NCBI GenBank assembly: GCA_001687465.1
Contig: LVLI01000550.1
Location: forward strand, 1 to 51,557
Direction of reading: 5' to 3'
Source: Halocafeteria seosinensis
Lineage: Eukaryota
Length of the DNA stretch: 51,557 nucleotides
Below, one piece after another: positions 11,750 through 50,363 of the stretch. The number at the start of each line of letters is the position of its first letter. Within the stretch, counting starts at the first letter, position 1. The notes under the pieces are model-generated. The model did not search any database and was not told the DNA's origin. It worked only from the letters and a program-made list of their open reading frames with translations. Made by a program: the position numbers and the translations under genes.

Positions 11750-14420
11750 ATGCCTAATTGGGATATGAAAGGTGCTCAATCCAAGCCAACAATGGAATCT
11801 GATAGAGCCCAGTACTACGAGCAGGAACTGCTGGAAGCTGAATCGAAGTACGACGAGTTTGTCCCCGAAATAGCCGAAGAAGGCGAGGGAAAGGAAGATG
11901 GAGAGTATGATCATGGATTCAGCATTCGAGACTTGGACTCAGGGCAGCAGGTACAGATCTATGATGTTAATACAGGAGAAGGGTAAGTCTTTTTCTTGGC
12001 ACATTTTGAGAGGGTGCGGCATTACACGTCACGCGCCTCTGGGCAACGGAAGAGAGAGGGAAGGCGTAGTGGAATGAGGGTGGTAACTGGCAGTCGCTCG
12101 CATGAATATAAATGTGTTGGGTGGTTGCCCAAAAACGAGCATGTAATTCTCTGCTGTACGTGTGATGGAGGCGCGTGTGTGAGAGTGTTTGCCCCCTTGT
12201 TTGTCCCTACCACTGACACTGCCCTAACTTCAACAAGGATCCCAGGATGGCTCTGCCGAGGAATGAACTGGAGTATCAGCAACATCGTCGAGAAAATGAT
12301 AAGTGGTACTACCGTCTTTGGTTGCAAGATATTACTGCCACTAGAGGCTGCCGTCCCTCTGCTCATTAATGCGGGAAATCCGTGGGCGGAGTGCCGGTTT
12401 GGGGTTTCCGGGATACTCCTTTTGTGTCGACGCGTTCGTATTAGTTGTATATACCATATTTTACCATTTATGTTACCGGATTCGATGCAGTGGATTGCCT
12501 GCGGAGACTGAAACAGAACAGCAAGAGCAATCTCCCGCGGAGAGACAGCGTGCGGAGTCTGTCATTACCCAGGAACTGGACCAAGCGAAGGAAGTCCACG
12601 TTGAAATAGTGTCCCACTCAAATATGAAAGAAGGGAAGACATCCTACGTGGCTTACGAGATAAGCATAACGCCGCGTATCAAGGATGCTGGGTATGCTTG
12701 GAAAATCTATAGGTATGGTTGGGGTGTCTGGTCATGCTTTCGCTTGGGGGGTGTGCTTACGGCCTATTTATAGCGCAGGAGGTATAATGACTTTAGGGGG
12801 CTATATGACGTTCTGAAAAAGGAGGGATTCGAAATGAGTCCTTTTCCCGGCAGGAATTTGCTGGGTGTATTCAGCTCAGATTTCCTCGAAAAACGCCGAG
12901 TTGCACTGAATCACTGGCTGAAAGGTGTCATGGCTTCTGCATCTCCCGATGCTTTGGACTATACAGTGGTTCGTAATTTCTTAACTGAAAATGCGGAACT
13001 GACAGAGAAAATACCGGGGAGTCGTGAAGGACGTTCCAAGCCACCCGTTCCCCCTAAGAATCCGCCCCGGAGCTCGAGCAGCGGTGCGGGTCTTTCCAGT
13101 ACGGTGCGAAAGAACAAGCATATAGGGCTAGAGGATTTCGAACTCGTTAAGGTCATAGGAAAGGGGAGTTTTGGTAAAGTACTGCTAGTTCGGAAAAAGG
13201 ATGATAGAAAGACAATGGCTATGAAAATACTTTCTAAGCCGAACATAATAAAAAGGAAACAGGTAGAGCACACCAAGACTGAGAGACGAGTCCTCGGGTA
13301 TACGAAGCATCCGTTTTTGGTTCAGCTTCACTACGCGTTCCAGTCTCGAGATAAACTATACTTCCTACTGGACTATTGTGGCGGTGGGGAACTGTTTTTC
13401 CACCTGGGACGTTTGGGAAGGTTCCGAGAGTCAATGGCTGCATTTTACACTGCTGAGTTAGTTCTGGCCCTGGGACATCTACATGCAGCAGGTGTAGTCT
13501 ACCGGTAGGTTTGAGTGCTAATTGAGGCTGAATCGTCAAGTTAGAAATTTAGTCACCCTCTCTGCAGAGATTTGAAGCCGGAGAATGTGCTTCTCGACAG
13601 TGACGGTCATGTGAAACTGGCTGATTTCGGATTGTCGAAGGAAGGGGTTACGGATGCTGTGGAAGGTACAAAGAGTTTCTGTGGCACCCCAGAGTACTTA
13701 GCGCCAGAAATCCTCGATAAGAAAGGGCATGGCACCGCAGTAGATTGGTGGAGCTTGGGTATGTTGCTATACGAAATGCTCACTGGACTGCCACCATGGT
13801 ACACAAGAGATCGGAAAAAGTTATACGAAAGGTTACGCTATGCACCTCTTGAATTCCCCGATTATGTCAGTGATGAGGCACGTGACTTATTGAGTGGGCT
13901 CTTGCAGCGAAACCCAAAGAAGAGGCTTGGTGCCTCTAACGACTCAGCAGAAATTGTCACACACTCATTTTTCTCGGGCATCAACTGGGCCAAGCTCAAA
14001 TCTAGACAAGTAACCCCTCCGTTCTGCCCACGCTTCCGGGGAGGGAGCGTCGATACTAAATATTTTGACCAGCAATTTACAGACTTGCCCGCAGATGTCA
14101 CTATGCAAGATAAAGATAATGTTGCTGACCGTCGTTCGGGAAGTGAGTATGGAAGAAGCTGGAGTGGTAGTAATATCTTTGCGGGATTCACGTTTGACGG
14201 GACAAATGAGCTCCGAATCCGTGCTGGAAGCGCAAGCAGTAGAGGATCAATCACGGGCTCCTTTGGAGGCCGCGGTTCTTTCACGGATAGAGCAGCCGCG
14301 TCGCAGCTGCCGCGACAAAAAAGCAACAATAGTGGAGCCGCAGGTTTTGGCAGCAACAAGTCCTCACCCTTGTCTCATTACCAGTTGTCTCCCAAGAGCA
14401 CTCACGATGAGAATGACTAG
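11750..14420 (+). CDS. PX-domain AGC Ser/Thr kinase (SGK3/CISK-like architecture)
   Basis: PX domain: VEIVSH...YVAYEI...WKIYR|RYNDFRGLYDVL...FPGR...FLEKRRVALNHWL. Kinase domain: GKGSFGKV, AMKIL, YR|DLKPEN, DFGLSK, SFCGTPEYLAPE, VDWWSLG. AGC C-tail with hydrophobic motif FAGFTF. Confidence 0.93.
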
Positions 14421-21884: not shown

Positions 21885-24800
21885 TTACAGTTTATCTGGT
21901 TGAGTCTTAAAAACTTCGTATAGATTCTGGAACGCGTCCACCCATTTGGGCACGTCTGTCTTCTGGCCAGTTTCAAGGTCCAAACTGAATTTCTCAGCGG
22001 TGATTGAAAGGCAACATGTAGGATCTACTTCTTTCCGGGAGAGCAGTTTTTTCTTATGATTAGGTCCTTTGCCTTGTTTTATTTCGGACACAGAGCGCAG
22101 ATCAACGGCCCCCAGTTTGGCTTTCGTCTTGGGGTCTTGCCAGATGATCGAGCGAAAATCTGGTGAAACCAAAACATGAGCACGTTTAGGAGTACCTTTT
22201 TTCCATACACTCATGATCTGTCCAGAACGTAACAATTGGCGGTATTCTCGCAACGGATCTTCTTCTCTCTTTGTAGTCGTTCGTACTTCTTTCGGCTCGG
22301 TTTCAGCTTCCTCAGCCTGAGCAAGATTCTCTAGCGACGAAATACTCAGGAGAGCTGACTTCCCGTAACGCTGAATTTCCTCGTCCTCCTTGTAGGTCTC
22401 CATAATGGTCTCAATTAGCTCTTTACCCCCTTCATCAATTACCACTTGAGCATTTTCTTTACTTGCCATTGCTACGTTGTCCAGTGTCTGTATACTCCGC
22501 ACCATAAGGTTTCGAGACTTGGGGTGAGTGGATATCGCCCGGATTATCGCCTGAATACCGTTGTACTGGACAAGGATCTTGATGTTACTCTCAACGAAAG
22601 CCAAATGTCCCAGCAGGCGAAAGGCCGACGTCAGAAAATCGGGGTCGTCGTGGTATCTTTCAATAGTTTGCATAATGGTGTGCAAACCATTTTCCGCGAT
22701 TATCTTGGAAAGCTCGTCATCTCCGGCTAAGCGGGTCAATGTTGCGAGACATTCAGCGCAAAAGTCTTTGCTATTCTTGTGATTGTTCAACAGCAGCAGG
22801 ATAGTGGACACTCCATCGAGATCCCGGATATTCTTCTGGGCATCCCCATCAGCAGCAAGATTCGTCATAGCAAGCTGCCCCGCAGTGAGAACGTCTTCAT
22901 TGTTCCCATGTGCTTCGATAGTAGAGAGCAATGCTTGTACACCGTTAACTTCCACGATCATTTTGACGCAGTCTTCATTGTATGTCAACGTGGCGAGCAA
23001 TGGCAAGCAATGGGCTACTATTTCTTCATCCCAGTCGTGTTGCTGCAGTATATCAATAACGACATTGACGAGACCCTGTTCCAACGCAACCTTCTTGGCT
23101 GTTTCCATGTCGTTACAGATATTGCATAAAGCATTCAGTGCCGATTTTAGAATTGAAGAATTCTGGAAGTATTTCTTCATATACCTTAAAATGGCATCCG
23201 TTCCGCCCTGTTCGTAAATGATGCTGGGGATGCTGCGATAATCGGGAGCCTTCGTCGCTCCTTCATCCTCTTCCATACTCGCGAAATTACCGAGCACTTC
23301 CATCGACAATTGGATGGCCTCATCATCGTCTGTTGCCGCGTCCATTCCCTGGACGATCACTTCAGTCGCACCGTGGTTATCCGCAATATACCTTATATTT
23401 TCATCTACATAGGACAGATTGCCCAAAGCTCTCAACGCCATCTTAAACAAATTGGTATCTCCGTAGTGCACTCGAATGATATGCGTCACTTCATCACCGC
23501 ATGTCTGACCAACAATACGCTTGTTTTCATTAGAGCCGTACATCAAGTTACTTAGCGCGCAAGTCGCATTCTCGAGAATTCTCGGGTGATTTGGATACTG
23601 CTGCATTGAATTCTCTATCCCAGTAACTCCGTCTGCCGACATGATGCGCTTTATGTTCTCGAACGAATTGAACGCCAGGTTAGCCAACACAGACAAGCAT
23701 TTCAAGATAATTTCCTCGTCGTCGATATGATTGCGTAGACCCGTGTGCGTTACTATAGGAATGCCACCACTTTGAGCAATTTGCTCTTTAAACGCATCAT
23801 TGCGGCTAACCCTTTCGAACAAAGCAAGCAGGATGCGAAGCAACGCTCTATTGTCGGGATTCGTGTTGATAGCTTGGATAATAGCGTTAATTCCGCCATT
23901 CTTTGCGATTTCTACGCAGTTTCCGGAGTTCATTGCCAATGTGTTCAAGCTCTGAGCAGCAGCCTCCAAAACCTCTGCTTGTTTTGGGTTGTTGTTCATC
24001 ACTGTTATCATCCCCGACAAAGCTTGCGAGTCGACGTTCTGCACGTTGTCCTCCTGTTGAAGGGTCGCAGCCTCTGCCATTGCTCGCAGGGATTCCTTCA
24101 TTTCGTTAAACCCTTCGGGCTCTTCCCAAGTAGTGGACCCCGTACTCATATCCACATAGTAGAACTGTCCAGAGTCTTCATCATAATGAGATTGATAGTT
24201 TGCTACCGCGGAGACAGTAGAGACCGAAGACTGAACTTTCGACTGCATAATTTTTGCCTGTTCATCAGAGAACTCATCAGCAAGACCTTCGGTGAGCTCT
24301 TCGTAGATGGAGGAAGCTTGCTCATCCTCCATAAGGACTTCCTGACACTTAGTAATTGTCCGCATCGATTCTCTATCTATCCCGCTCTCTGGTGCCCCCA
24401 TGGCGTTGACGACGTTCCGCATTACGGTTGCACAGCTCTTAACGATGCCGCGATCGGGTTCGATTACGTTGTCTTCATCCTCTAGGCCGTCTCGATATAG
24501 TTGCATTGTCTGAGCAAGGATCTGCATACTCTCGTTGTCCGCGATTGGACTACAGGTTTCCTTTGTCTGATGAGAAGTCACAGTATCGACGACTTTCATT
24601 ATTTTCTGTACTGTTTCTGCGTCGGTGATATTGGCTCCGACCATTTCTACAGCTGCTTTCAAACCGCCCTCCTGAGCAAGCAAGACACTTCCCTCAGGGT
24701 CTAATTTTATGGCGTATATGACGGACAGTGTGCTATCAGTCAAGCGGAATGCTTGTAACTTCGTTCGGTTGTCGGATTCGGCTGTCAGAGCCTTCTGATT

Positions 24801-27800
24801 CTTCACCGCGATACTCATACATTTCGCAAGACCTGTCACTTGCTTCGGCCTCGTGGAGACTTCTTCAACACTGTTATCCTCAATTCTTGCAGCAATACCA
24901 CGCATTATCTCGGTGGTCATGTCTGTGGACACGCTTCCCGAACTACCTGTGTCCCCTTGAGAAGCCAGGACCGACCATAGCGCTGTCTCGCCTCCTTCAG
25001 AAGAGCATATGCTATTGACAACACTCTCCAGTTTACCCGCGTCAGATGCATTGGCTTGAAGGACCCCACTGAGCGTCTCCGTTCCACCTTCGGAAGAGAC
25101 CATTTCGCCGGCACGCTCTTGGGCCTGGGCTGTGATTGCATTCACTGTATGCGATACCAAGGAATTCAGATTCTCATCTCCTGGGTTCTTCTTAGCAATG
25201 TTGATCATGAAGTCAAGTGCCCCCAAATCCACCATTGTGCGAACGGCGGCAGGAAAGTCGCTCAGCATTCCGAAACAACGAATAGCCGCCTCTCGTATTT
25301 GGGAGTTATCCGTGTGACTGGATAACGTGTCCATTATTACACGAACAGCGTCAACCTTATCGCTATCGCTTCCCTCCGCAGCAACACGGGATATTGAGGC
25401 AAGGCCTGAGCTAACCACATGATCGTCTGCGGTGTGCGATTCTGATAGAAGTGCCACAGCATTGACGAGCGAAGATACGACGTTCGAAGCATTGCTTTCG
25501 GTGACCACACCTTCCACCATCAAGAAATTCCCGAGCTTCTGCACGGAATCGCCTAAAGCTGAGAACATCTCCTCGGTCGTTTCCTCTGCATCCTCAATTT
25601 CTGCCGCTCTCCTGTCTACTTCATCCGCGTACTGTACTCCAAGTTCCGAAGTAGCCCCCATGCTTTGCAGAGCCTGTGTTCCCGCATTCAACACCTTGCT
25701 CGAAGTCGCATTGCTGCTCATAGCTGCCATTATTAGTCCCGATGCACCACTTTCTTCAAGACTATTGGAGAGATCCTCAATTCCGTACGCTTTACTGAGA
25801 ACAGTCAAAACCAGTTCCATGCAATCGGGATCATTGAGATATTCTTTATTCTTTTGGACAGCTTTCATTATTCTTCGCAGAGTTCCTTCGTCATGCAGAA
25901 GTCGCAGATTGTCTGAATTCCTTTCTGCGAGACCCAGTACAACCGCGGTAACCGCCCTAAACACTGACGTGTTCGTTTCTTCAGAATCGACACAATAGCT
26001 CGATACTATAGTCTTCAGCATGTTTCCAGTCCCGATCTCACGGAAGTAAGCCGCAGCTTCTGCGGCATACGCGAGTTTCGACATTAGGGTCAGAGCTGAC
26101 ACGAGTGTCTCCACTGGAGCATCTTCCCAGTTGTCGTCTACCCATTCGTTTACGACACGCTTAACTCTTGTGGTGGCTACCTGGTCCACCGTTTCTGGAT
26201 AGGTAGAAAGGGAGGCCAGAGCATCAAAGCAGCTCTTCAAATTTTGACTGTCCTTCTGCTTCTCTAATTGTTCGATTAGCCTTTCCAAAAATGCGTAATC
26301 GTTGAGTACGGTTGAAGCACCTGAGAAGGATTGTTTGGCGAAGTTGGAAATAAAATTCATGGACTCAATTACAGCAATCTCTTGATTAAGTGCAGTGCCA
26401 ATATGACTGAGCACCTGCTTTTGCTCCGGGAATTCTCCAGATGCAGCCAGGCGAGACAAGGCTAAGATCGCAGCTGGCAAGAAGGAACGCTGCTGTGCTT
26501 CCTTCGCCACTTTCATAAAGTCATCCATGATACCCACTATGGTCTTTCCACCATCTTCTTCCAATATGTCTTTACCGTAAGTGCTGACATTCGCAAAGTG
26601 GCCAATTCTCCCAATGGCAGATATCAGTTGGTAAGTTCCATCTTTCGATTTAGCCAGGGAACTTGTTGATTCAGAGAGTTCTTCAAGGGTGTCTAATGAC
26701 TGTTCGATATCGTCCCTAGTTACAAGTTTTGCCAAAAGAGAGGTACCCGCTTGAACTAGTTTGGCATTCGAGGAAGTAGCAGCCATTGCCTCCGTTACAG
26801 CATCCACGGCACCTTGCTTAACCAAAAGGTCAGAGCCTTCTGACGTCAAGGATATTCTCTCTAGGAGAGCAATGCATTTCTGGAACGACGCGGTAAAATC
26901 AGGAGTTTCTCGATTACTCTCTAACGCTGTTATAATCTGGCGAGTAGCTCCGTGCTTGGCGACCGCAAGGGCACCTTCATCTGTAGAAGCAATTCGCAGG
27001 AGGGTATCAACCGACGAACGGACAACGTTCTTTTCACTCTTGTTTGCTCTTAACGCAGCTCCACACGCTTCGATAGCACCCTTCCGCCCCAGCAGTGCTG
27101 CCCCCTCCTCACTGTACGCGACCTTTTCGAGGAACGAAACACAGTTGTTAACATGGTTCACGTTTCGGGGGTTGCCTTTCAATGAGGAAACGACTGCATG
27201 CACACCACCAGAGTCGTCCAGGGCGCGAACGTCTTCTTCACTTTTCATGGCAGTTGCAACATCATACAATGCTTTTGAGCACGAAACGAGCAGCTCCTCT
27301 CGTTTAGGAACATTGTGAGATTTCGTGACCCTCTTCAGACCATCGACCAGCGCATTAATACCTTCATTGCGCATAATCTGGGCAAATCGGGGAACAATCG
27401 AAAATGATGCGGCCTTAGTTATCATGTTTGAGGCTTCCACAGAGTTTTCTTCCGAGGGAGAGGAGAACAGCTTTGCAACAGACTTTGAGGTCGTAGTGAT
27501 CACGTTCTCCACTGAATCACCATCGACCAGTCCCCCCATTAACTCCCCGACTTCTCTTCTGACTGACTGCTCATTGTTATGCCTTACAACAGCACTCAGT
27601 GTCTTGCTTAACCCATCATGCTCTTGAATGTACTGCCTGTATTCCGGAATGAGACTTAGTGAGGTAAGCAGATAGCAACCTGCTTCGGCAGCTTCTTTCC
27701 TGTCGCTAGACTCTATAACCTTCAATGCTTTTTCGATTATGCCCTTTTCAACCATTTTCTCAATATTCGCTTCATCATAGCTCATGTAAATTAAGCAGCG

Positions 27801-29309
27801 CAGAGCATTAAGTTGAATAGACTCCGAATCCTCATGGGTCTCCATGGAGGCCAGAATCGAATCAATAACACCAGCGCTTACCAAACGTTCCATGTCATAG
27901 TCTACAGTGGCAAGGTGTTCAATAAACGCAAGACTGTTGTCAACAATGCTCTCGTCGGTAGAATCCTGTGCAAGGATTTCGATTACCTCACCGATTCCAC
28001 CGATTTCCTCAATATGCGACACGTACTCCTCGTTGGTCGCAAATTTCGTAAGGACAGACAATGCACATTGAACAACCTCTGCGTTATCTTCGTGTTCTGA
28101 TAGCATTTCAACAAGGTCCGTAGTCGCTCCTTCTCTGATGAGCCATTCGAGATTCCCCTTGCTAGTGTCTGCAATCCTACCTAAGGCTCTCGATGACGAA
28201 GTGACAGTTTTCGTATTGCCAGACTTTAAGCCTGACAAGAAAGCTTGCTGACCGCCACCTTCGACTATAGGATTGACGTTCTCCTCTTCTACAGCCAGGT
28301 TTGCAAGGAGACCGGATAAAAATTCCCTCTCTTTCTTGTTGTCTGCATTGTTCATCTTCTGCACCAAACCGGGAATATCACTGCTTGCCATTTTTGATAG
28401 AACTCGGCTTCCTGCTTTGCAAATTTTTTCGTCGCCAGCTTGCGTCTCCAGAGCTTGAGACAGTGCCCCCAATCCATCGCATCTTTCACGGATATATTCG
28501 GCATGTTCCTTATGACGGCACAGACGGTCCAATAAGCGAAACGATCCTTCTACCATGCTCCGTATATCCGTAGCCTCCGAAGATTCGTCTTTCGAAAGTG
28601 GAGAGTTTAGACTGGAGAGAACGCAGTTCACGGCTCCGGAATCCACCAGCTCCTTTGAACCACCAGGGATTTTGTTCAAGCGCTCCATCGTCCGAATCGC
28701 AGAGGCGCGTAGCCTATAGTCACTCGTGGACTCTCCACAATTATGGAGTTTTTTTAGAACGGAAGAAAAACTCCCTTGCAGCAAGGATTCGGGGCTGTAT
28801 AAGAACAGAAAAAGCATGTACATCAGAGTTCCCATAAAATACTGTATATCGTAGACTGCCACCTACTTGTACATGGAAACTGTTTCGAGCAAATCCAGTG
28901 TATCTTTGGAGCCCTCGCCTTCCGGATTTTCGATTACGCTCTCCAGCATTGACCCCATTGCACCGCTGGCGACCAGTTCTCCGGCCATTTTCGGACGCGT
29001 TGCCATCGCCGCCAAGGTTTGGTTGCAAGCTGCCAGGACCCCTTCATCACCCTTGTGTCGATTCAACACATCCGTGATAGCGTCGACAGCCCCAGCGTCA
29101 AATGCCGCGTCCAAGTTTTCTTCCCATCCCACTTGGGGAGGAGTGACGACCTTGCACAAGCACTGGACCGAATAAGAAGCGAGCTGTTTGAACTTACGGT
29201 GCTTGCGAATACTGGCGACCAGATCCACAACAGCTGCGCTGGTGCCAGCTTCCTTGCTCGCCGGTGCATGTGACGCACGCTTCTTGGCACCAATGTTCTT
29301 AGGCGGCAT
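21885..29309 (-). CDS. GAC: Giant armadillo-repeat protein (2450 aa) with internal WW and C-terminal PH domain; putative glideosome-associated connector homolog
   Basis: Two exons (29309-28867 and 28794-21885) with phase-2 intron 28795-28866 GTAGGT..ATACAG, 7353 nt in frame. Continuous ARM repeats (e.g. GGINAIIQAI...ALFERVS, CLSVLANLA, ALRALGNLS). WW: YQSHYDEDSGQFYYVDMSTGSTTWEEP. PH: LRSGQIMSVWKKG...IIWQDP...VDLRSVSEIKQG...CCLSI...WVDAF. The ARM+PH call is firm. The GAC assignment rests on architecture and on N-terminal similarity recalled from memory. Confidence 0.72.
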
Positions 29310-29342: not shown

Positions 29343-29906
29343 GACCTACGCTTTGTAATGTCTGGTTCCGTTGGGCTCCAAGAGTTCAGGGTCCATCAAC
29401 AGGGGTAGTCCGAAGGGAGCAAAAAAGGTTGGACCACAATCGTTCGACGCTGTGCTCCACAATCTCAGCCCACTCAACCGAGACCGAGCAGTTGGATTTC
29501 TCTTGACAGGAAGTAACGTCAACACAACTAGTGCGACAAAACCCATACAATGCTTGTACACACTACTTCGATCGAGCTGCTCGCCACCCGTCCGTCGCAA
29601 ACTGCCGGCTCGCAGGTCGCAAGCTACAACCAACGATTCGCAACGAAGGATTCAATTGAGTGACCTTTTACAAGGGACGTAGTTCAATATACCACGGGAA
29701 GTGGGTATCTTTAACAGAGTATAGGTCTCATCCTACTCTGCTGTGACAGTGCATGTTAAACGAGCGGAAAGCATTCAAAGTGCTACTCAATGGTGTGGGT
29801 GTACGATTCCTCATTTCGGGGAATTAATCCCTTGGGAGGACTCGCAAAAAGAGAATTAAGGAGTCTGTACTCTCAAATAAAACAATCGCGTGGAAACTAC
29901 GGCTAA

Positions 29907-32900
29907 TTACAACTCTGCTATTGACCGAGGGTTCGCCTTGAATGCCGTCAGCAGCTCCCACAAGCTTGAGACACACCATTGTGCCACCGAGGAGCTTTCC
30001 GCTTCGCAAGCTAAGTACGACTTTTCCGAAGACAATCGTCCATGATACAGTACAAAGCAACATTCCGGATAAACAGACTTCCTTAAGTACCACTTTTTCT
30101 TGTGGCATGTTTCAACAGTCTGCTCGACTTTCCGTAACGACTTCAGATCGACGGTAACATGGTGCACCGTTTTCGTCGTATCTCTCCATCGAAGACAGTC
30201 GTTTCGCTCGCCAAGAACCATAATACGAGAAAAGGGCTTACCTTTCCACCAAACGTTCATCCTAACTCCTCTCTTTAGTTGATTTACGATGTAACTTAGG
30301 CTCTCTCTGTCAGTCTCCCCTTGGGTGACTGCTTCAGAGCTTCCACTATGCTCCTTCTCACTTGCAGGATTCTCTTCGGTGGCGTCAGACGGGGATGTTG
30401 AGGAGAATTGAGAAAGCACACGATTGGCAATTTCAGTAATTTTATCATGATCTTTATGGGCATCAGCCACATGCTCGACCATCTCCACACCTCCGGCTTC
30501 TCTCAAGAACTCTGCGTTCTCTTCCGATGATTCGGCTATGGTACCGCATATCCCAAGAGTCCAAACCAGCACGTCCGTTGCCTTCGGATGCAACGACACT
30601 GTTTCAGTTAGTAGAAGCATCCCGTCAAGTTCGATAAACATTGGAATCACGTCGCAACTTGCATTGAGGACGTTATCCAAGAGACAAAAAAGGCACCTCA
30701 AGAATGTTTTGTCTGTTTTGTGTAAACTGAATAACTGTTTCACCACCTCAAAGTTGTTTTGCAAAAGGCTTTCGGCAAGTGATACATCGTCTATCGAAAC
30801 AGTAAGGAGCACCATCGTTTCGATACACGAAGGGACGTTTTTCTCGAAGCGTTGAAGCGAAGCCATTAAAACGTCAAAAATGGAGGAATTTTGCAGGCTA
30901 CGAGCGACCACAGGAGAAAACGACAAGTTTGCCAAGACTCGCTCAACCCACGTTATCGTTTCTTCGGAGCTGCTGAAGTGATGCATTGCTTCAATCAAGC
31001 ACTCGACCCATCCGGTTTCTACTATTTGGACACTCACTGAGCGAGCAACGGATAAACAATCTAGAAGCTTCATCACATTCAAAATGATAGACTCGTCGTG
31101 TCCAACGTATTCCTTATAAACCGTGATCAGTACCGCCGCGAGGTTCTCTGCTTTCTGCACTTGTTCCGCGACTTGTGCATCGGTACACACGTTGTATAAA
31201 CTCGCAAGAGACATCAATGTTAAGGCTGAATCCTCTGTATTCTCCTTTAATAGAGAAATGACCACCCTTGGGCCTCCTTGCTCCTGAACCAGTAGCGGAA
31301 TAGGAGTCTCACTCGGGTCTGGTTCAGATTCCGGTATTGATAAGTTGCCGAGCAAACCTATACCCGTTTCTACAACTTCTCTTTCGTATTTATTCGCTTC
31401 GACTACTCGGCACACATGCTGCACTAGGCACAACTCTTCCACCATATACCGGTTATTTTCAGAGTACAGTGAGACGCAACCGATGGTACGGAGCGTCAAG
31501 AGGACCAGGTCTTCATCTTTGTAGTGTGCACGAAGCACGGATACAAAGATCTCACCGCAGGACCCCAGCACTAACGAAAGTGTTTCAGCAGAGCCGAGTA
31601 TCAAGTTGGATAAGACACACATACCCCTTCCCACGATTTCTTCGTTTCCTAAATGATTTTCCACGCAAGCACGGATCACATCTACTCCTTCTTCAAGGAA
31701 CTGGCGCTGCCCTTCTTCTGTATCCAGTGTCAAAACCGAGAGAATACCAACACAAAGTTCAACGGTTTTTTCTACATCAGTTGCACTTGCGAGACACGCT
31801 GTCACACTGTTAATGCACTTAGACTCGACAATGATATCATGAGAAGATTTCTCTCGAGTCTCATGGATGAACTGGAACACGCTAGACAGAATGTCCCCAT
31901 TCTTCGGGTTCTCCGCAATAAGGCCTACGATTGGCTCGATGATCCACGGTTCCGAAAAAATGTAGCCGTTGTTGTGGTGTCGGCTTAGAGAAACCAGATG
32001 ATCAATGGCATCTACTGTAAACTCGTTTGAGGCAGCTTCCTCCGTTAACCGGTTAACCACAAGCTCAACGTACTCTCTTTCGACAGACACCAGTTCACTT
32101 TCATTCCATGAACAGACAAGTTTAAATTTCTCCCTGCATTTTTCATCCGCGTATTTGGGGAGTGTACTCAAGTCACGCGTCTCCACCAGCAATGAATAAA
32201 TGTCGCTTAAGACCTTAGCAGGACGCTGGCTTCCGGGTTTAGCTGCAGTTGAGGGTGCTCCTTTAGGCGGTGGTGGGGGGATTGCCTTTGCATTGCTATT
32301 CCCTCTTTGGGATGAACGATGTTTGGATACTTTAGACTTCTTCTGAGCGCGGTAACCAGCATCGACGCTCGTGATTCTTCGCAAACGTTTCTGGACCATT
32401 TCGTCCAGGCCATCTTCTGTGGTTTGAGCCTCGTGCTCCCCGTTCGTATTCTCTTTATTCGAAATTTGTTCAATTGCCTGACTGCGATTGTAAATTGACG
32501 TGACGGGAAGCAGTCGTTGTGAGTGAAAGCAGGAAGTGCAACAGAATAGAAAACGCAACGTACCTGCAATTTTCCAGGAGTCCTTTGACCACCGACGCTC
32601 TGTTTGCGAAGGCTTCATCCTCGTATATAGCTTCAATAACTTCGTCAACGATACCCGAATGTATGATCGCCCTCGGTCTAGAAACCATAGGCTCTATGCA
32701 CTGCATGCACAAGTTGAAAACGTCGTCGTCCGCTTGATGCCGATTCATTAATTTTCTAATCGAGTCTAAGACTCCTAGATTCAGACACGCGTCTATCTTC
32801 TTCTCTCTGTCTAGATTCGAGGAAGTCTGAATCATGTTCAGAATGCATGATACCGAGTACAGAGCTAGTTTTTTAAACTTTCGGTGCCGATTAAGGTTGT

Positions 32901-32964
32901 TGACCTGGGTACGGGCCCATTCCAGGTCATCCGCCGTGGGTGTTTGCTGTTCCATTGACGCCAT
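29907..32964 (-). CDS. Shorter ARM-repeat+PH protein (991 aa); tandem paralogue of the 21885-29309 gene
   Basis: Exons 32964-32564 and 32481-29907 with phase-2 intron GTACGT..CGCAG, 2976 nt in frame. It aligns by eye to the neighbour at the N-terminus (RHRKFKKLALYSVSCI vs KHRKFKQLASYSVQCL), in the late ARMs (CVLSNLILGSAET...SCGE...RAHY vs CALSNLMYGSNEN...TCGD...RVHY) and in the PH domain (VWWKG...VDLKS...HKKK...CC vs VWKKG...VDLRS...HKKK...CC). Confidence 0.88.
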
Positions 32965-33402
32965 AATTCGCCCTGCCTCTTCATGAAAGTGTACAAAGTG
33001 ATACGGTGAACTGATATCTGGAATTAAAACTGCACAAAAGAGCCCGAGAAAGATATTACAGGGATAGCATGAAAAATCAGAACTGCGTCCCTCCCGCTTC
33101 AACTTTACTTTACCACGCCATGGAATTTTACACGTTTTTTCAATATCTATGGCAGTAGAAGGGAGGAGAGCCGGTATCCACAAGGGAGAGGCAGTGGTAC
33201 ACGTACCCGAGCAAACCCTTGAATTGTACTACGCTGGCAACCAGTGGCAAAGGGAAGAAGACATGGTTCAAGAATTGCGCCACAGCCACAAGGTCGCTAA
33301 GCCTCGCTTTCCGCATGCGACCGCAGCCACCCCGGGTGACCCGCCTCGGTGGGGAAGGAAGAAGATTTTGATGGGAAGTATACATAAAAAGTATGTCGGT
33401 AT

Positions 33403-36400
33403 TTACTTTTGCTGTTTTAGAGAGGTAGATGATGAAAAGCTAAGCATTGTAAACGCGAAAGCGACAAGCCCGGGAGAACTCCAATAAGCGCGATGCGCAT
33501 TTCGAGCCGCAATGTAGTCAAGTTTCTGCGGGGAAAAGAGTGCAGAAGCCAAAATACGGTGGACTAGGTAACGTAAAAACTTCGAGTTGTAGAAAGGCAA
33601 ACATACATCAAAGTGACTCTGTCCGCGCGGGATCTCGAAATCGATAGGCTCACCTTGCTTCCATGCCTCTACTAGTTCGTTTGCCTCCTCCTCGACTTCC
33701 GCAAATGGGTCTGAGGTTAAATTCGATGACGCGAAATAGCGTTGCATCAGGTCAGGCTTTCCTGATTCTGAATAGCTTTCACTCTCCGAAGCTTGCGAGT
33801 TCTTGCTGCTACCCCTTCTGGGAGGTGGTGGGGGAGGACTGTCCGTTTTCGAAGACGCCCCTCTCAACAGACTCTTGTTAGCCATCGATGACAACTCATC
33901 CCGTGACATTTGAAGTGCGACTTTAAGAAAATACTTTGCATCCGTACTTTCAGGCTCCATTACTGAGAAAGGGTAAGGGGAGGCCAAGTCCGCGATACCT
34001 TTCCCTGACGACACTTCTTGTAACGAGGCAGCTAAGAGTGGAGATAACCTCATGGCGACAGGGTCGCAGTCATGATACAAATTGAAATACTTAATGCCTG
34101 CCTTGCGTAGTGCCTTATACTTTCTCTTTATCTCCTCGGGAACAAGGCCGCGAGTTGTCAAATACAGTGCAATAGGACTCCCCATAGAGAAAAAGCACCG
34201 CGGTGAAAAACAGAGTCTTCCAGACTTAGACGACAGTAAATCGAATGCAATAACTGCACAATCATATAAAAAGCAGGAGCTTGGACGAGCTTGGACGAAT
34301 ACAGGATGAGTATTGCTATGGAAGGAAATAGCAAACTCACCTCCGCCGAGACTGTGACCAAATATTGCAAGGTTTAAGTGCTCCGTTTTGCCAACACAAG
34401 GGTGGCCAATCAAGTATTGCTTGTATTGCAAATTAAGTTGTTTAGCTACATGAGCCTGAGAAAGCAGCGGAGAAAATAGTGCAGGGAGTAGCGACAACAT
34501 TGCGGGGCTTATTTTACTTACTCGAATTCGATCTCCAAAGGGTCCGAAATAATTTGCACCGTTTACAAGGGTATTTGAAATGAAGTTTCGTAGCCGAGGT
34601 AGAGTTGACAGTTTTACAGTTGATAAGAGGGAAGATACTTGATGTAATTTACTTTGGGTTTGATCATCAGATTCACCGGGAAGATCGTTCGGAAGAATCT
34701 CGGTCGTAACTGTGGTTTTGCTAGCGGCTGATCTACCGACACTGCCCAGTGGGCTGATAGGACCACTGAGGGATCGCTGCATTTGAAGCGGAGTTTGGGG
34801 TAAATTCCCCATGCTGTCGTCACTGTCCGAATCTTCATCTGCTTCCACGGAGCTCCTCCCACTAGCCCGATTGCTGCTTGTGTAGCGAAGCGTTTCCTTG
34901 TTACTTTCTATATCGGTATCTGTTCTAGAGTGCCATGAAATGCCTTTGAGATCTATCCGTGCCACCCTTGCATCCACGCTTTCCTGTTCCACCGCTTCGT
35001 AGAAAGCGGAGTACATACGATTTACCTGTGCAACAAGAAGGAATACAACTCACAACAGTTGCAAACCTAGTAAAACCTCCTGCACAAGTCATACCTTTCT
35101 TGCCATCTTTTCTTTACCATGGTTTCCGACTCCGTGTAGCAGGAATACTAAATGATTTGACGAGTGCAACTTAACACGGGGTAGGGGAAACCTCAGTGAA
35201 AATGTTGCAGAGCCCGGGTTTCCTTCGACCAGGAGAAATCCCGCACCATAAAGCTCTTTCATCTTATGCGGTGTGGCGATTACCTTTCGGATCCATTTTC
35301 GGCGCCTGACGCGTTCCCCTCCCAATGATTTCTTAAACGAACCGATTCCGATACTACTTATTGTTGGCGGTCTCGGTCGAAATGTAAACGGTTCGTCCCA
35401 TGCAGTGGCATATTCCCAACCTCCACTGGAGGCAATCTTCTCATATTCCCACTTCGTCCTATTAACGTGCCTGCTATTGGAAGCTTGCGATTCATTACCT
35501 TTTCCCGGAAGCACGCAGCTATCTGGAAGCTCCACCTGCCACTCCGAGTGAGGATCCCAAACCCATCCAGTGGAGTCAACAGACGGAGAAAACTGAAAGC
35601 TCGTGTCTGATCCATATCTTCTACCAGAAGAATATGGACTTGAGGTATCGTGTGGGACGCACAGGCCACCAGCGATGGCTAGCTCTGCGGCTACTAACTG
35701 CGTAAGGGAAGTTGAGCTGGCTGGCCTAACGTCGCCTTCAGTGTGCCGCGAGCAACTAAGTGTAGGATGCAGTTCCATAGCAATTGCTCCTCTGGTATCA
35801 ACTTTCTTCGTCTTATCTGGCTCATTTGAGGCTTCTGCTTCTCCATCGTTGAATTCTACAACTTTTAAGGGTACAGGATGTTCAGCGCCCTTCTGTTGAC
35901 GCGGGTGCTGTGGTTGAGCACTGCTATCGCTTACCCACATTGATGAACCATGCAGTCGCGAATGCCAGCACTCAGTCGTTTCGTCCTTGTGTGCGTCGCT
36001 GTGTAATGGGTTTTCTTGTTGGAAGGGTACAAAACTTCGAGGGCCTCGCCACGCGTTTTCGGGTTCTTCGTCAGGATACGGCTCACTACACAAGCTATAC
36101 AGGGGAAAATATCCATCTGGGTCGCTTGAAAAGGGACAAAAGTTCTTCGGGGACGGCCTCCAGTTGTTGATCTTGGAATCAAAGCGCTGCCGTTGATAGA
36201 CTTCTACATATGCCGTCACCGTGTGTTGGCTCAAGTCATTGCTGTATTTGGCCACTTCTTCCTCCGACATCCAATGTTTGATTGTCGATACAGTTGCATC
36301 ATCTGCATTAGTGTGGTCCTCTGGGCCACCCACATCCAAGGAAAGATCTGGAAGATTGTCTTTATTTGAGTCTGCCTGGTACTGCGTGGAACTCACTGTC

Positions 36401-36453
36401 GCATAAGCACATGAAGCTGGAGGGGGGCGGGCACCCTCGTTATTTTTCTCCAT
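33403..36453 (-). CDS. DDHD-domain intracellular phospholipase A1 (PA-PLA1/DDHD1-2/SEC23IP family) with an N-terminal DysF-like domain
   Basis: HLVFLLHGVG; lipase elbow GHSLGG|VIAFDLL after removing intron 34254-34340; FFSMGSPIALYL; YFNLYHDCDPVAMRLSPL; terminal AHRAYWSS. Upstream WVWD..SEWQVE...GGWEYA..W...VRRRKWIR fits the DysF pattern. Confidence 0.87.
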
Positions 36454-36691
36454 TGTTGCCACCTTTGAGCGACCGGCTTCGGATAGAACAAAAATGGCAC
36501 AATCTGCCAGGCAGATTCATGGATCCTACAACAAGCCACGTTTTTCAATAGACTGTAATGGCTCCCACCGTGGAGGCGAAGAGATATCTTCGCAATTGTT
36601 CACGAAGGATTAAAGCGAACTGGCTAGGCTATACGATTGGGTCTAATATGGAGTGATCGGCGGTCTTATTATTCACCATTGTCTACACTCA

Positions 36692-46646: not shown

Positions 46647-48704
46647 ATGTCAAGCGAGGAGACTTCCACCACTGGAGCCGCGACGGCCGTGGCTGATGCC
46701 GGCGCCTCTGCCACCTCTACACCGGCACTGTTTGGTTCCAAGTTAAGTGCAAATGCACCCGCATTTAGTTGGGGTGATGCTACCACTAATGGGGACGATG
46801 AGGATGCTGAAGCAGCTCCTGACACGGAGGGAAACGAGACACTAGGTCGTAAGTCGCGGAAACCGGAGTATGCTTTTTTTTCCATTACCACCGAACAAGA
46901 TGATACAACGCTCTTCGCAGGCCATCGAGAAGAACTTGATCCGAATCAGGAGGAAGCCGAAGTAGTGGTTAAAGCTGAAAAAGTATGCTTCTGCTCCGAT
47001 GGAGTTGGTTGACGGCACGATACGTGAATAATCTCGTTTGAATGCAGAAGCCACCAGGGTTTGAAGAAGAGTTTACGAGTTCCAAGACATGGGAGTCGCT
47101 CAATATGTAGGCTTTGGTCTGGATGATTTTCACAGAAGTCCGTGTTTGAGTGGTATGGGCTTGGCATGCAGGTCTGAAAAGATAATTCAGGGTGTCTACA
47201 ACAAGGGTTGGGAGAAACCCAGCCGGATTCAAGCCGAGTCACTTCCTTATATTTTGAGCCCGTGAGTGCCTAGACCCAATTTTTGTAGTGCGAAGGGTAG
47301 CTCTTTTAAAGCGTGTTTCATTATTCAGTGAACGTCCAAATATTCGCGCACAAGCTAAGAATGGCAGCGGTAAAACAGGCTGCTTTGCCATTGGAATGCT
47401 CGAAGCTGTTGACCCGTCTAAAGACTGTGTTCAAGCTCTGAGCATGGCACCTACAAGAGAGCTCGCTAAGGAAACAGCAAAAGTGATACAGGAAATTGGA
47501 CAGTTTGCGGGAATCCGCGTGAGCTATGTTGTAGGGGGAACGCACTATGACAATAATATTACGGACCATGTCCTCGTAGCAACACCAGGAAAGTTGCTAA
47601 ACCTCTGCAAAAAGAGAATAATCAATTTGAAGACAGTGAAGGCCTTTGTCCTAGACGAAGCCGATGAATTTGTCGAGTCATTCTTGGGAAATATAACGGA
47701 AATCAAGCGATTTCTCCCGAAGGAAGTACAAGTGATGCTTTTCTCAGCCAGCTTTATGTGTCTTGACTCAGCTGACAAGAAAGCCGTACGTTTTCCGTAT
47801 ACTCGAAGGTCATCTTATTTACACTACCCGCCATTCTGTTTGCAGAAAAAATTTGCGGATAAGTTGTTGCGCGCTGAGGTCAAGCAACCCGTGGTGATTG
47901 AGGTCAAGAGCGACGAGGAGCTGAAACTCAAACATCTCACACAATTTCGTAAAGAAATATCGTCTCAAGGTGCTGATGAGTACACGGCTAAACTCAATTA
48001 TTTGCGGCAGTTGTTCCCTCAATTGGTTAGAATTGGCAAAACTATTATCTTTACGAACTATCGGAAGCGCGTTAGTTCAATTGTGAAGACTCTAGGCGAT
48101 GAAGGCTTTGCTGTAGGAGGTTCGTTCGCCGTTTGCGCTTTAAGGAAGGAACGGTTGTGTATAATGGTTGGTGTGTTGAACTGAATGTACAGGGATTGAC
48201 AGCAGCATGGAGCCCGCTAAAAGGGACGAAACGTTTAACGATTTTATGGCCGGCAGATCGAATGTAAGCAAGAGTGTATGGTATATTGTCGCTGTACCTG
48301 CTGGACGCTTTACCCGCTGTGAATGCAGAAACTTGTCTGCACTGATATGATGTCTAAGGGTATAGATGTACCCGGACTCATGCTTGTTATTAATTTTGAT
48401 GTGCCCTATGCGAAAGCAGATGTCAACGGGGTTGCTCGGCCGGTGAGTGTTTTTGTACTGGCGGTGGAGAATTGTGCTTCCAATTCATACCAGGAGTTTG
48501 GTGCAGAATACCGAAAGTTTCTTGCACAGATGTGGAAGAGTGGCGCGGAAAGGCACCACTGGCGGTGCTATAACCCTCCTATACGGAAGCAATGACGAGC
48601 AATCATACAACCAGCTCTGTAGTCGCTTCAATTATGTTCCCATTGAATTGCCTGATGACCTGGACGAGGTAGTCGAACTCATCGAGGAACGGCTTTCGTA
48701 TTAG
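46647..48704 (+). CDS. DBP5: DEAD-box RNA helicase, DBP5/DDX19-like; multi-exon
   Basis: Q motif TWESLNI...GVYNKGWEKPSRIQAESLPYIL, then AQAKNGSGKT, APTRELA, ATPGKL, FVLDEADE, MLFSASF, TIIFTN, LVCTDMMSKGIDVP, VINFDVP and FLHRCGRVARKG. The KPSxIQ/IxAQA pattern favours DBP5 over eIF4A or DDX6. Confidence 0.8.
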
Positions 48705-48788
48705 TGATTTATGCCTAAACCTGCTACAAACGGAAGCATTCTCTAACTTTGAATAAATACACTATGTTGTCATGAACGGACGCGCAAT

Positions 48789-50363
48789 TTAGTACGAGCG
48801 GTGTTTGCGCTGCTCAATCCAGGATATTGTGTGTTGCAGTACATCCGCAGCGATAGCTTCACGCTCGCGAAGCAAATCATGATGAGCCCCATCGTACTCT
48901 ATCAAATACTTGTCTTTGGAATTGCTGAGAGCTATTAGCCGACGAGAACCTAAGATGTGACACACGCGATCTGCTGTCCCATGCTGTATAAGCAAAGGAA
49001 ACTTGTATCTTCCAAGACACCCCTCAATGTGTGTAACAGCTTCTCTAATAGCTAAACCCTGAATGCCAGCAACGCACGAATACATATGAGCGACGATGTA
49101 TGTCGCAATTACAACGGCACTCTGGTAACTTACTGTTCCAATACGAAGCTTCCCACTATAAACAAGTGGGTCTTCTATTTCCTCTGCTAATCGTTCCTCT
49201 GATACAGATTCATGATAGCTCTTACCTCCAGAACCTTCAACGAAAGGAGCTCGAGAGAGTGGCGTTAAGTTCAATGCCTTACCCAAGGCTTCCACAAACC
49301 AATTTGGTGTGCTCTGTTCAGAAACGCTTATCAAGGGACTGTGCACAATTACCCCGCTAACCAAAGGTAAATCTGGTTCCGTTTCCTCATCCAGACCCTC
49401 GCAGTCCCTGCTACTTCCGTCGCTGAATTCCCCGTCGGAGGACGTTGAGGCGTTAGTCGATACTGAAGGGTCATCTTGAACCAAGGTTGACTTTGGATTT
49501 CCCGTTAATTCCACCATACTGGGTTTATGATAAATGGTCTGAAGAAACTGAGGGAGCTTCTCTTGGTTCTCTTTGTCATTAGCTTCTTCGCCTTCCGCAG
49601 GAATGAGATTAGTGTGGCCTACATCATCATCCTTGGTGGATGCTGATTCATATCGACTGATCGTAGCAAATTTTTTATAGTGATGTTCAATCTCTTCATC
49701 CGAAAGTTTATCTTTAGTGTCCTCAGTGTTTTGAGTTTCGTTACGATATGCGTCCTGAGTGCATAAGCGTGCAGCTTCTAGAGAAAGGTAACCTCCCAGT
49801 GAGTGGCCGAGATATATTATCGGAACGCCAGGATGCCGAGAACGACAGTATTTTGTGAATAAAACAAGATCCTCAACGCACTCCTGTACATCTTTGAAAT
49901 ATCCGTGCATTCCTTCGCTTCTACCGTGGCCTGTATAAGCAATCCGCCGCTTAACAACAACAAAAAGAAGCAAATTATACTAACCAGTCTTACCTCGGTG
50001 ATCTAAACCATATACTCCCATTGCATTGTTCGTCATCTCTCTAGCCCAGGGAGCGAACCTTCCCGCATGTTCGTGAAGGCCGTGGACGAATATGACGATA
50101 GCCTCCACTGATGCACTCTGAGACCCTCCAGTGGCAGCCCCTTTCCTGTAATGTTCTACGGCGATGTTTTCGCTGACTGGCCTTTCGCGTGGAAACCAAG
50201 CATGGTAGTGCAATGACGAACCGTCCTTCGTTCTGAAATGACCACGATGGTGTTTTACACCTGTGGCTCCCTTCAATTCTACAGGATTAAGTGGCTCTTT
50301 GTGCCTATCGTCAAGTTGAAGGCTTCCCAACGGAGGGAAGACTTTCGTCAAGAGAGTTTCCAT
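48789..50363 (-). CDS. Alpha/beta-hydrolase, monoacylglycerol lipase/lysophospholipase (Hydrolase_4) family; may extend further 5'
   Basis: VIFVHGLHEHAGRF, GLDHR|GHGRSEG, nucleophile LGHSLGG, LLIQHGTADRVC (Asp) and YDGAHHDLLRE (His). The frame stays open upstream of METLL to a possible acceptor near 50617. Confidence 0.9.

Follow-up and report, generated by a model that had tools for sequence, protein, structure and literature searches.

A short GAC-like protein encoded beside its full-length homologue in Halocafeteria seosinensis: a new architectural variant with a predicted membrane-adaptor function

The short gene B from H. seosinensis encodes a new architectural variant of GAC-like protein, observed in one organism and with a predicted function, in which an N-terminal cap is followed, after a short linker, by the last block of ARM repeats and a PH domain. 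The adjoining gene A encodes the corresponding full-length protein. B may be a deletion derivative, old and confined to its lineage, that by analogy with the Toxoplasma glideosome-associated connector (TgGAC) works as a short membrane adaptor, a reading that we hold with about even confidence. Both genes lie within the window, the whole stretch of 51,557 nucleotides analysed (contig LVLI01000550.1), which is eukaryotic, with short GT-AG introns.

The two genes occupy the minus strand, with B upstream of A and 597 bp between them. Gene B (991 aa; 32964-29907) comprises (i) exon 1 (aa 1-134; 32564..32964), encoding an N-terminal cap, roughly three ARM/HEAT repeats long, in which the family motif HRKFKKLA occurs, (ii) a single intron of 82 nt (32482..32563), and (iii) exon 2 (aa 134-991 and the stop codon; 29907..32481). 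Gene A (2,450 aa; 29309-21885) displays the same organization, with exon 1 encoding the N-terminal cap (aa 1-147; 28867..29309), a single intron of 72 nt (28795..28866), and exon 2 (21885..28794) encoding the remainder of a full-length GAC-like ARM-WW-ARM-PH protein. Both introns are GT-AG and, as the original prediction had it, in phase 2, but their placement after the LLE motif differs by three codons, the intron following at the third codon in B and at the sixth in A; the intron sequences themselves are unrelated, 212 of 500 shuffles scoring as high.

The spliced joints, 32481/32564 in B and 28794/28867 in A, are present in contigs of the same three of four runs, and the contigs of the fourth run are unspliced; splicing was read here from contig joints, and all runs belong to one study, the kind of run not being on record. 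In the three runs, single spliced contigs cover 29929-33260, across the B junction, and in the fourth run an unspliced contig of 19,956 bases starts at about 29929 and extends beyond 33000. In addition, the protein collection contains both products as complete ORFs: P0001 (991 aa) is B with 8 substitutions relative to the window, and P0002 (2,450 aa) is identical to A. The joints and the two complete ORFs together identify B as a real, spliced gene with the intact frame that had been predicted.

Comparison of the two proteins highlights two colinear blocks. BLAST aligns B21-116 with A31-128 (33% identity, E 2e-16) and B292-985 with A1760-2447 (172/703 identities, 24%, with 24 gaps; E 7e-62). 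When 21 full-length family members are combined in a profile, it matches B at 21-135 and 260-987 only, in agreement with the proposal that B keeps the first ~130 aa, the last ARM block, and the PH domain. The whole segment B259-987 is colinear with A1728-2447. With these two blocks, and with the genes co-oriented and adjacent, the predicted paralogy stands, although no similarity between A and B is left at the DNA level (best E 0.064). The C-terminal block comprises (i) an ARM arch of about 14 repeats (aa 259-827; 30402..32108), colinear with A1728-2300 and aligned to coil 3, or region II, of TgGAC, and (ii) a PLC-delta-like PH domain (aa 852-990; 29913..30329), which is basic (23 K/R and 17 D/E in aa 850-991).

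Between the blocks, about aa 145-1727 of A (~1,580 aa) has no counterpart in B; the portion within exon 2, from about aa 148, maps to 24054..28794 and includes the WW domain (Pfam PF00397, E 2.5e-06; 24117..24194), which is absent from B. These residues are replaced by 123 unrelated ones; the loss of the WW domain was correctly foreseen, whereas the supposed central deletion of ~1450 aa corresponds to the net difference of 1,459 residues and not to the extent of A without a counterpart. The replacement segment (B aa 136-258; 32109..32477) shows no detectable similarity to A, with no match to A's middle in 28 windows (best 1.8 bits). Described beforehand as a short basic, Pro-rich linker, it is indeed basic at aa 166-200 (32283..32387; 11 K/R, 1 D/E) and Pro-rich at aa 201-222 (8 P), with a run of five prolines at aa 202-206 (32265..32279), but it opens with an acidic stretch at aa 136-165. 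Its last ~40 residues (aa 219-257) are modelled as the first two helices of the ARM arch. An RxRxxT motif occurs at aa 166-171 of the linker. The segment B205-262 was also considered as a remnant of the helices flanking the WW domain and rejected for lack of sequence support, 454 of 1,000 shuffles scoring as high.

The relationship with TgGAC required profiles: TgGAC was missing from the phmmer results against the PDB, whether B or A exon 2 served as the full-length query. The whole-family profile retrieves TgGAC (8C4A/8BT6) as the top match with E 2.5e-71, the next natural protein following at 7.5e-25, and reveals the A family as colinear with TgGAC (profile 6-1199 to chain 3-1218). The C-block profile also gives TgGAC as the top PDB match, with a whole-chain E of 5.9e-49 and in register (profile 60-468 to 8BT6 1878-2287). 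The N-cap profile, which includes B, finds residues 5-130 of the 8C4A chain first (E 1.7e-22), at the N terminus, and A exon 1 alone matches the TgGAC N terminus with E 2.5e-07. The GAC-like identity is thus supported by three family profiles (whole, C block, and N-cap), each with TgGAC as its top PDB match. The PH profile has PLC-delta1 as its top PDB match (1MAI, E 2.5e-10); it did not reach TgGAC at E 10, and the lipid-binding residues of the TgGAC PH domain could not be mapped onto B. PLC-delta1 is also the nearest homologue named for the TgGAC PH domain (10.1101/2022.12.09.519741).

The predicted structure of B (pLDDT 81, pTM 0.56), built from an input of 22 sequences with a misaligned portion at B101-250, displays the N-cap, a long low-confidence helix, disorder at 184-218, the ARM arch at 219-827, and a PH fold with strands modelled at 873-960; the C block modelled alone gives pTM 0.67. 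The top Foldseek match of the B model is 8BT6 (E 6.7e-12, TM 0.32), which ranks third for the C block alone (TM 0.55). In VIA-align, B215-831 superposes on TgGAC 1788-2479 (Z 25.8, rmsd 7.0); at 597 residues, this alignment to 8BT6 is the longest among those listed, and it leaves out the N-cap. By structural Z, 8BT6 (25.8) is equalled or surpassed by other ARM proteins, which reach 27.8.

What B could do is best discussed against TgGAC, as described in two reports. TgGAC comprises 53 repeats, with region I spanning 1-1665 and region II 1670-2489; in the closed latch, AHR1 and AHR17-18 contact AHR48-50, the PH domain binds phosphatidic acid, and the fragment 1-1114 binds actin while 1-619 does not (PMC10125020). 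Every coil co-sediments with actin, though coils 1-2 do so better than coil 3, which is rigid and forms a cradle for the PH domain (10.1101/2022.12.09.519741). B would have arisen by local duplication in A's lineage, followed by in-frame loss of the region from just after intron 1 to the WW domain or just after it, and then by rapid change, with selection acting on the fold and not on the surface residues of the family. By analogy with TgGAC, the PH domain of B would bind an acidic membrane lipid and the ARM arch would hold a partner protein. Lacking the coiled pyramid, B presumably cannot serve as a long extensible actin-membrane spring; the part with the stronger actin binding, as mapped in TgGAC, would be gone together with half of the N/C latch, and weak actin binding by the arch is possible by the same analogy. 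Counting against a role as adaptor, B matches the family consensus at no more than 42% of the columns that are most conserved.

B would be of use as a natural deletion: it sets coil 3 and the PH domain apart from the spring-like coils, the role of which is under debate. Together with A it offers a ready pair of constructs for assays of lipid, actin, and shape. The weight that B can carry is limited, because its function is predicted, its sequence is very diverged, and it has been seen in a single organism. Upstream of B, an ORF at 33403-36516 on the minus strand encodes a DDHD domain (Pfam E 9.3e-15), a family which we take to be phosphatidic-acid-preferring phospholipases A1; its adjacency to a putative phosphatidic acid-binding B may be chance. 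Elsewhere in the window, 12774-14420 on the plus strand presumably encodes an AGC-type kinase with a PX-like N-terminal part, as read from its translation.

A different role, in which B regulates A in trans, is unlikely; it could act by competing for a membrane or receptor site, by swapping its N-cap into the N/C latch of A, or by binding the WW domain of A through the five-proline run. B retains precisely both ends that meet in closed TgGAC (AHR1 and AHR48-50), but an internal gene deletion leaves both ends by default. The latch residue H24 of TgGAC aligns with H37 of A and H27 of B, and B27-40 is the best-kept stretch of B; nevertheless, R629, K672, and R716, which take part in three of the five named latch pairs, belong to AHR17-18 in the lost part, D11 of the TgGAC latch is not kept in B, and E2436 is not mappable. 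B lost the WW domain and gained PPPPP, and runs of at least four prolines occur in 2 of the 40 proteins with N-cap and PH, yet PPPPP is present in 2 of 20 long ORFs, including the gene immediately upstream. Finally, the spliced contigs of A and B come from the same three runs, whereas at 23% identity the surface of the B arch is unlikely to bind the partners of A. In a broader picture, GAC would be an ancient protein rather than the apicomplexan invention it is held to be, connecting actin with the membrane in free-living stramenopiles and rhizarians, and B, a springless mini-GAC with latch and membrane ends kept, would tune full-length A in trans; this strikes us as distinctly unlikely.

The pattern of divergence bears on whether B functions at all. 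Over a branch of 2.6 substitutions per site, B has acquired neither stop nor frameshift and has kept its repeat register. Hydrophobic family columns are still hydrophobic in B in 171 of 198 cases (polar columns, 74 of 321), the consensus is kept at 34/81 of the most conserved columns vs 46/303 (15%) of the least conserved, and the PH domain remains basic. For an open frame, few gaps, and a hydrophobic pattern to be retained through 2.6 substitutions per site, purifying selection must have acted for long, and the whole fits long selection on the fold of B with weak constraint on single residues. Differences between the two haplotypes, counted at 37 classed sites among those listed, add a recent view. 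Among the sites listed, B carries 8 non-synonymous and 3 synonymous differences, which matches the neutral site ratio (p 0.72), and A carries 1 and 2, respectively; replacements per site are more frequent in B (8/2301) than in A (1/5672; p 0.0003). The neighbouring ORFs, whose exon limits are uncurated, show at least 13 non-synonymous and at least 11 synonymous differences among the sites listed (p 0.46). Clusters of haplotype differences and small insertions or deletions at 29875-29928, 48600-49900, 40596, and 45651 reflect a heterozygous genome with uneven divergence.

Recent relaxation of selection on B is possible. It is rather improbable, on the other hand, that B is slowly decaying, a redundant copy that is still transcribed and open but now subject to little selection. 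Such decay would agree with the compatibility of the 8:3 allele ratio with neutrality among the sites listed, with a branch at least six times that of A and an odd letter make-up that was flagged, and with the failure to find a B orthologue although the A gene of the nearest relative is in the collection. Against it stand the 991-codon frame, the mere 24 gaps in 703 columns, and the hydrophobic pattern, all kept after so many substitutions; moreover, 11 differences between two haplotypes afford little power, and the neighbours are similar.

The origin of B is best approached through its placement in the family. A is the best match of B in both the N block (32.5%) and the ARM block (23.4%). Quick trees leave B unresolved near A, P0003, and P0004, with a branch of 5.5-7.9 under a mixture model. 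The placement tree comprised 18 proteins, 831 columns, and 33 branches, with one protein per close group, very long rows omitted, and P0081 joined to P0003. It keeps 7 of the 33 branches for B, among them the A+P0003 stem (AU 0.70) and the branches to P0004, P0029, and P0031, and it rejects B as sister to A alone (AU p 0.019), along with Cafeteria and most other groups. The strict sisterhood with A alone assumed in the original prediction is not supported. Simulating B as the true sister of A recovered that branch 11 times in 12, so that under a uniform model the B split predates the split between A and P0003, which are 60% identical. B falls near A's lineage but apparently split off before A's nearest relative, and rate shifts in B could still bias the placement. 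Where A and P0003 differ, B agrees with A 33 times vs 19 (p 0.07), and shared derived residues do not favour A (2/20 vs 1/26). The branch of B, 2.6 substitutions per site against at most 0.45 for A, and the absence of DNA-level similarity do bear out the predicted age and strong divergence of the copy. P0081, read with P0003, ends at the end of A's exon-1 frame; the position of the A intron thus appears conserved in the nearest relative. Since A is the best match in both blocks and most other placements are rejected, the sequence data make a duplication of B from A's lineage likely.

There is little probability that B is not a local duplicate of A but a short and older relative within the family that ended up next to it. 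The rejected sisterhood, the retained placements near P0004, P0029, and P0031, and the derived residues without preference for A would agree with such a history; the family, in addition, varies in size from 907 to over 2,700 aa and includes a third divergent copy, P0114. Local duplication is nonetheless indicated by the co-oriented adjacency, by a phase-2 intron within three codons of A's, a position that the ORF breaks of other members do not show (L003, L008, L017, and L023 break near A50-66), and by the best matches to A in both blocks, with a B-like short form found nowhere else. That B is an assembly artefact or a pseudogene is scarcely credible: a look-alike false join does occur in L023 and all runs come from one study, but the spliced contigs of three runs and the long unspliced contig cross the junction, and B is unlike A along its whole length and hence no chimera of A reads, so this explanation is already refuted as far as the contigs allow. 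In L023 (1190-1300), the junction of GAC-like N and C parts falls at a short repeat and breaks the frame; the locus is probably an assembly chimera and was rejected for that reason as a second mini form.

Outside Apicomplexa, the GAC-like family is broader than its published range. In the literature, GAC is called unique to apicomplexans (10.1101/2022.12.09.519741) and apicomplexan-specific and absent from chromerids (PMC9250747). A table restricted to alveolates, however, gives putative orthologues for Chromera (1), Tetrahymena thermophila (2), Colponema vietnamica (12), and Symbiodinium goreaui (8), and none for Vitrella or Perkinsus (PMC7951837, columns counted here), so that GAC-like matches outside Apicomplexa are not wholly unrecorded. 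We found no account in the literature of a stramenopile or rhizarian GAC, nor of a short form. Named homologues of the A family come from Cafeteria roenbergensis (FNF31_07374), Cantina, Platysulcus, and Paulinella (at least two); to judge by these matches, the carrier of A and B would be a protist of stramenopile type. The proteins of the 2,400-aa group mostly carry a WW domain ahead of the last ARM block; P0017, P0018, and P0019 are full-length members whose WW insert is degenerate or shortened. A further subfamily of ~1,800 aa, with an N-cap-like start and a PH domain, comprises P0048, P0054, P0057, P0065, P0068, P0069, and P0093 and includes Paulinella records. Colinear full-length homologues across free-living protists make the origin of the gliding connector testable.

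The distribution of B itself is narrow. An HMMER search with B against 1.84 billion representatives gave 97 matches, with no orthologue of B among them; the best match after B is P0003 (203 bits, 23%). Word-based searches with B exon 2 and the C-block alignment returned P0001 alone, but they exclude little, because only ~8,000 candidates were scored and known fragments were missed. No second copy was seen in 33 related metagenome loci, only 4 of which have at least 7.5 kb upstream, none of them from a close relative. Gene copy number was judged from protein records; by that measure, P0114 (3,165 aa), which shares its record prefix with P0001 and P0002, is a third, strongly diverged, and expanded GAC-like copy. 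Of 119 proteins, 40 have both N-cap and PH, and only two of these, B and P0111, are under 1,000 aa. The suggestion that B marks the minimal modules of the family is not borne out, B being one gene without orthologues and P0111 keeping a different set of modules.

Compared with known systems, B shares the ARM solenoid fold with ELMO and other ARM-plus-PH adaptors, beta-catenin, importin-alpha, and Vac8 (structural Z 23-28), and the Atlas feature score for ELMO reaches 0.79, scores below 0.9 being leads only. B has no ELMO domain, however, and no in-register sequence match to these proteins appears at the N-cap. P0111 (907 aa; a single Logan record and a putative gene) resembles B in combining N-cap and PH in under 1,000 aa, but it is an independent short form that belongs with the ~1,800-aa subfamily and keeps different modules: its first ~600 aa lead through a charged linker to the PH domain, and the last ARM block is missing. 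The full-length ARM-WW-ARM-PH proteins of free-living protists are homologous to B over both retained blocks, but they span 1,584-2,761 aa, and the architecture of B is matched by none of the 40 proteins with N-cap and PH. Compared to TgGAC, B comprises 991 vs 2,639 aa, comes from a non-apicomplexan, displays 10-12% identity in structural alignments, and has lost nearly all of region I (coils 1-2), including the actin-binding part 619-1114 and AHR17-18, and with it the giant 53-repeat solenoid with its region I pyramid; A, in turn, carries a WW domain, of which the available parts of the two GAC papers (PMC10125020 and 10.1101/2022.12.09.519741) make no mention for TgGAC. Besides these differences, B preserves the N-terminal repeat with its conserved His, the C-terminal ARM arch equivalent to coil 3 or region II, and the PLC-delta-like PH domain, in the same order as in TgGAC.
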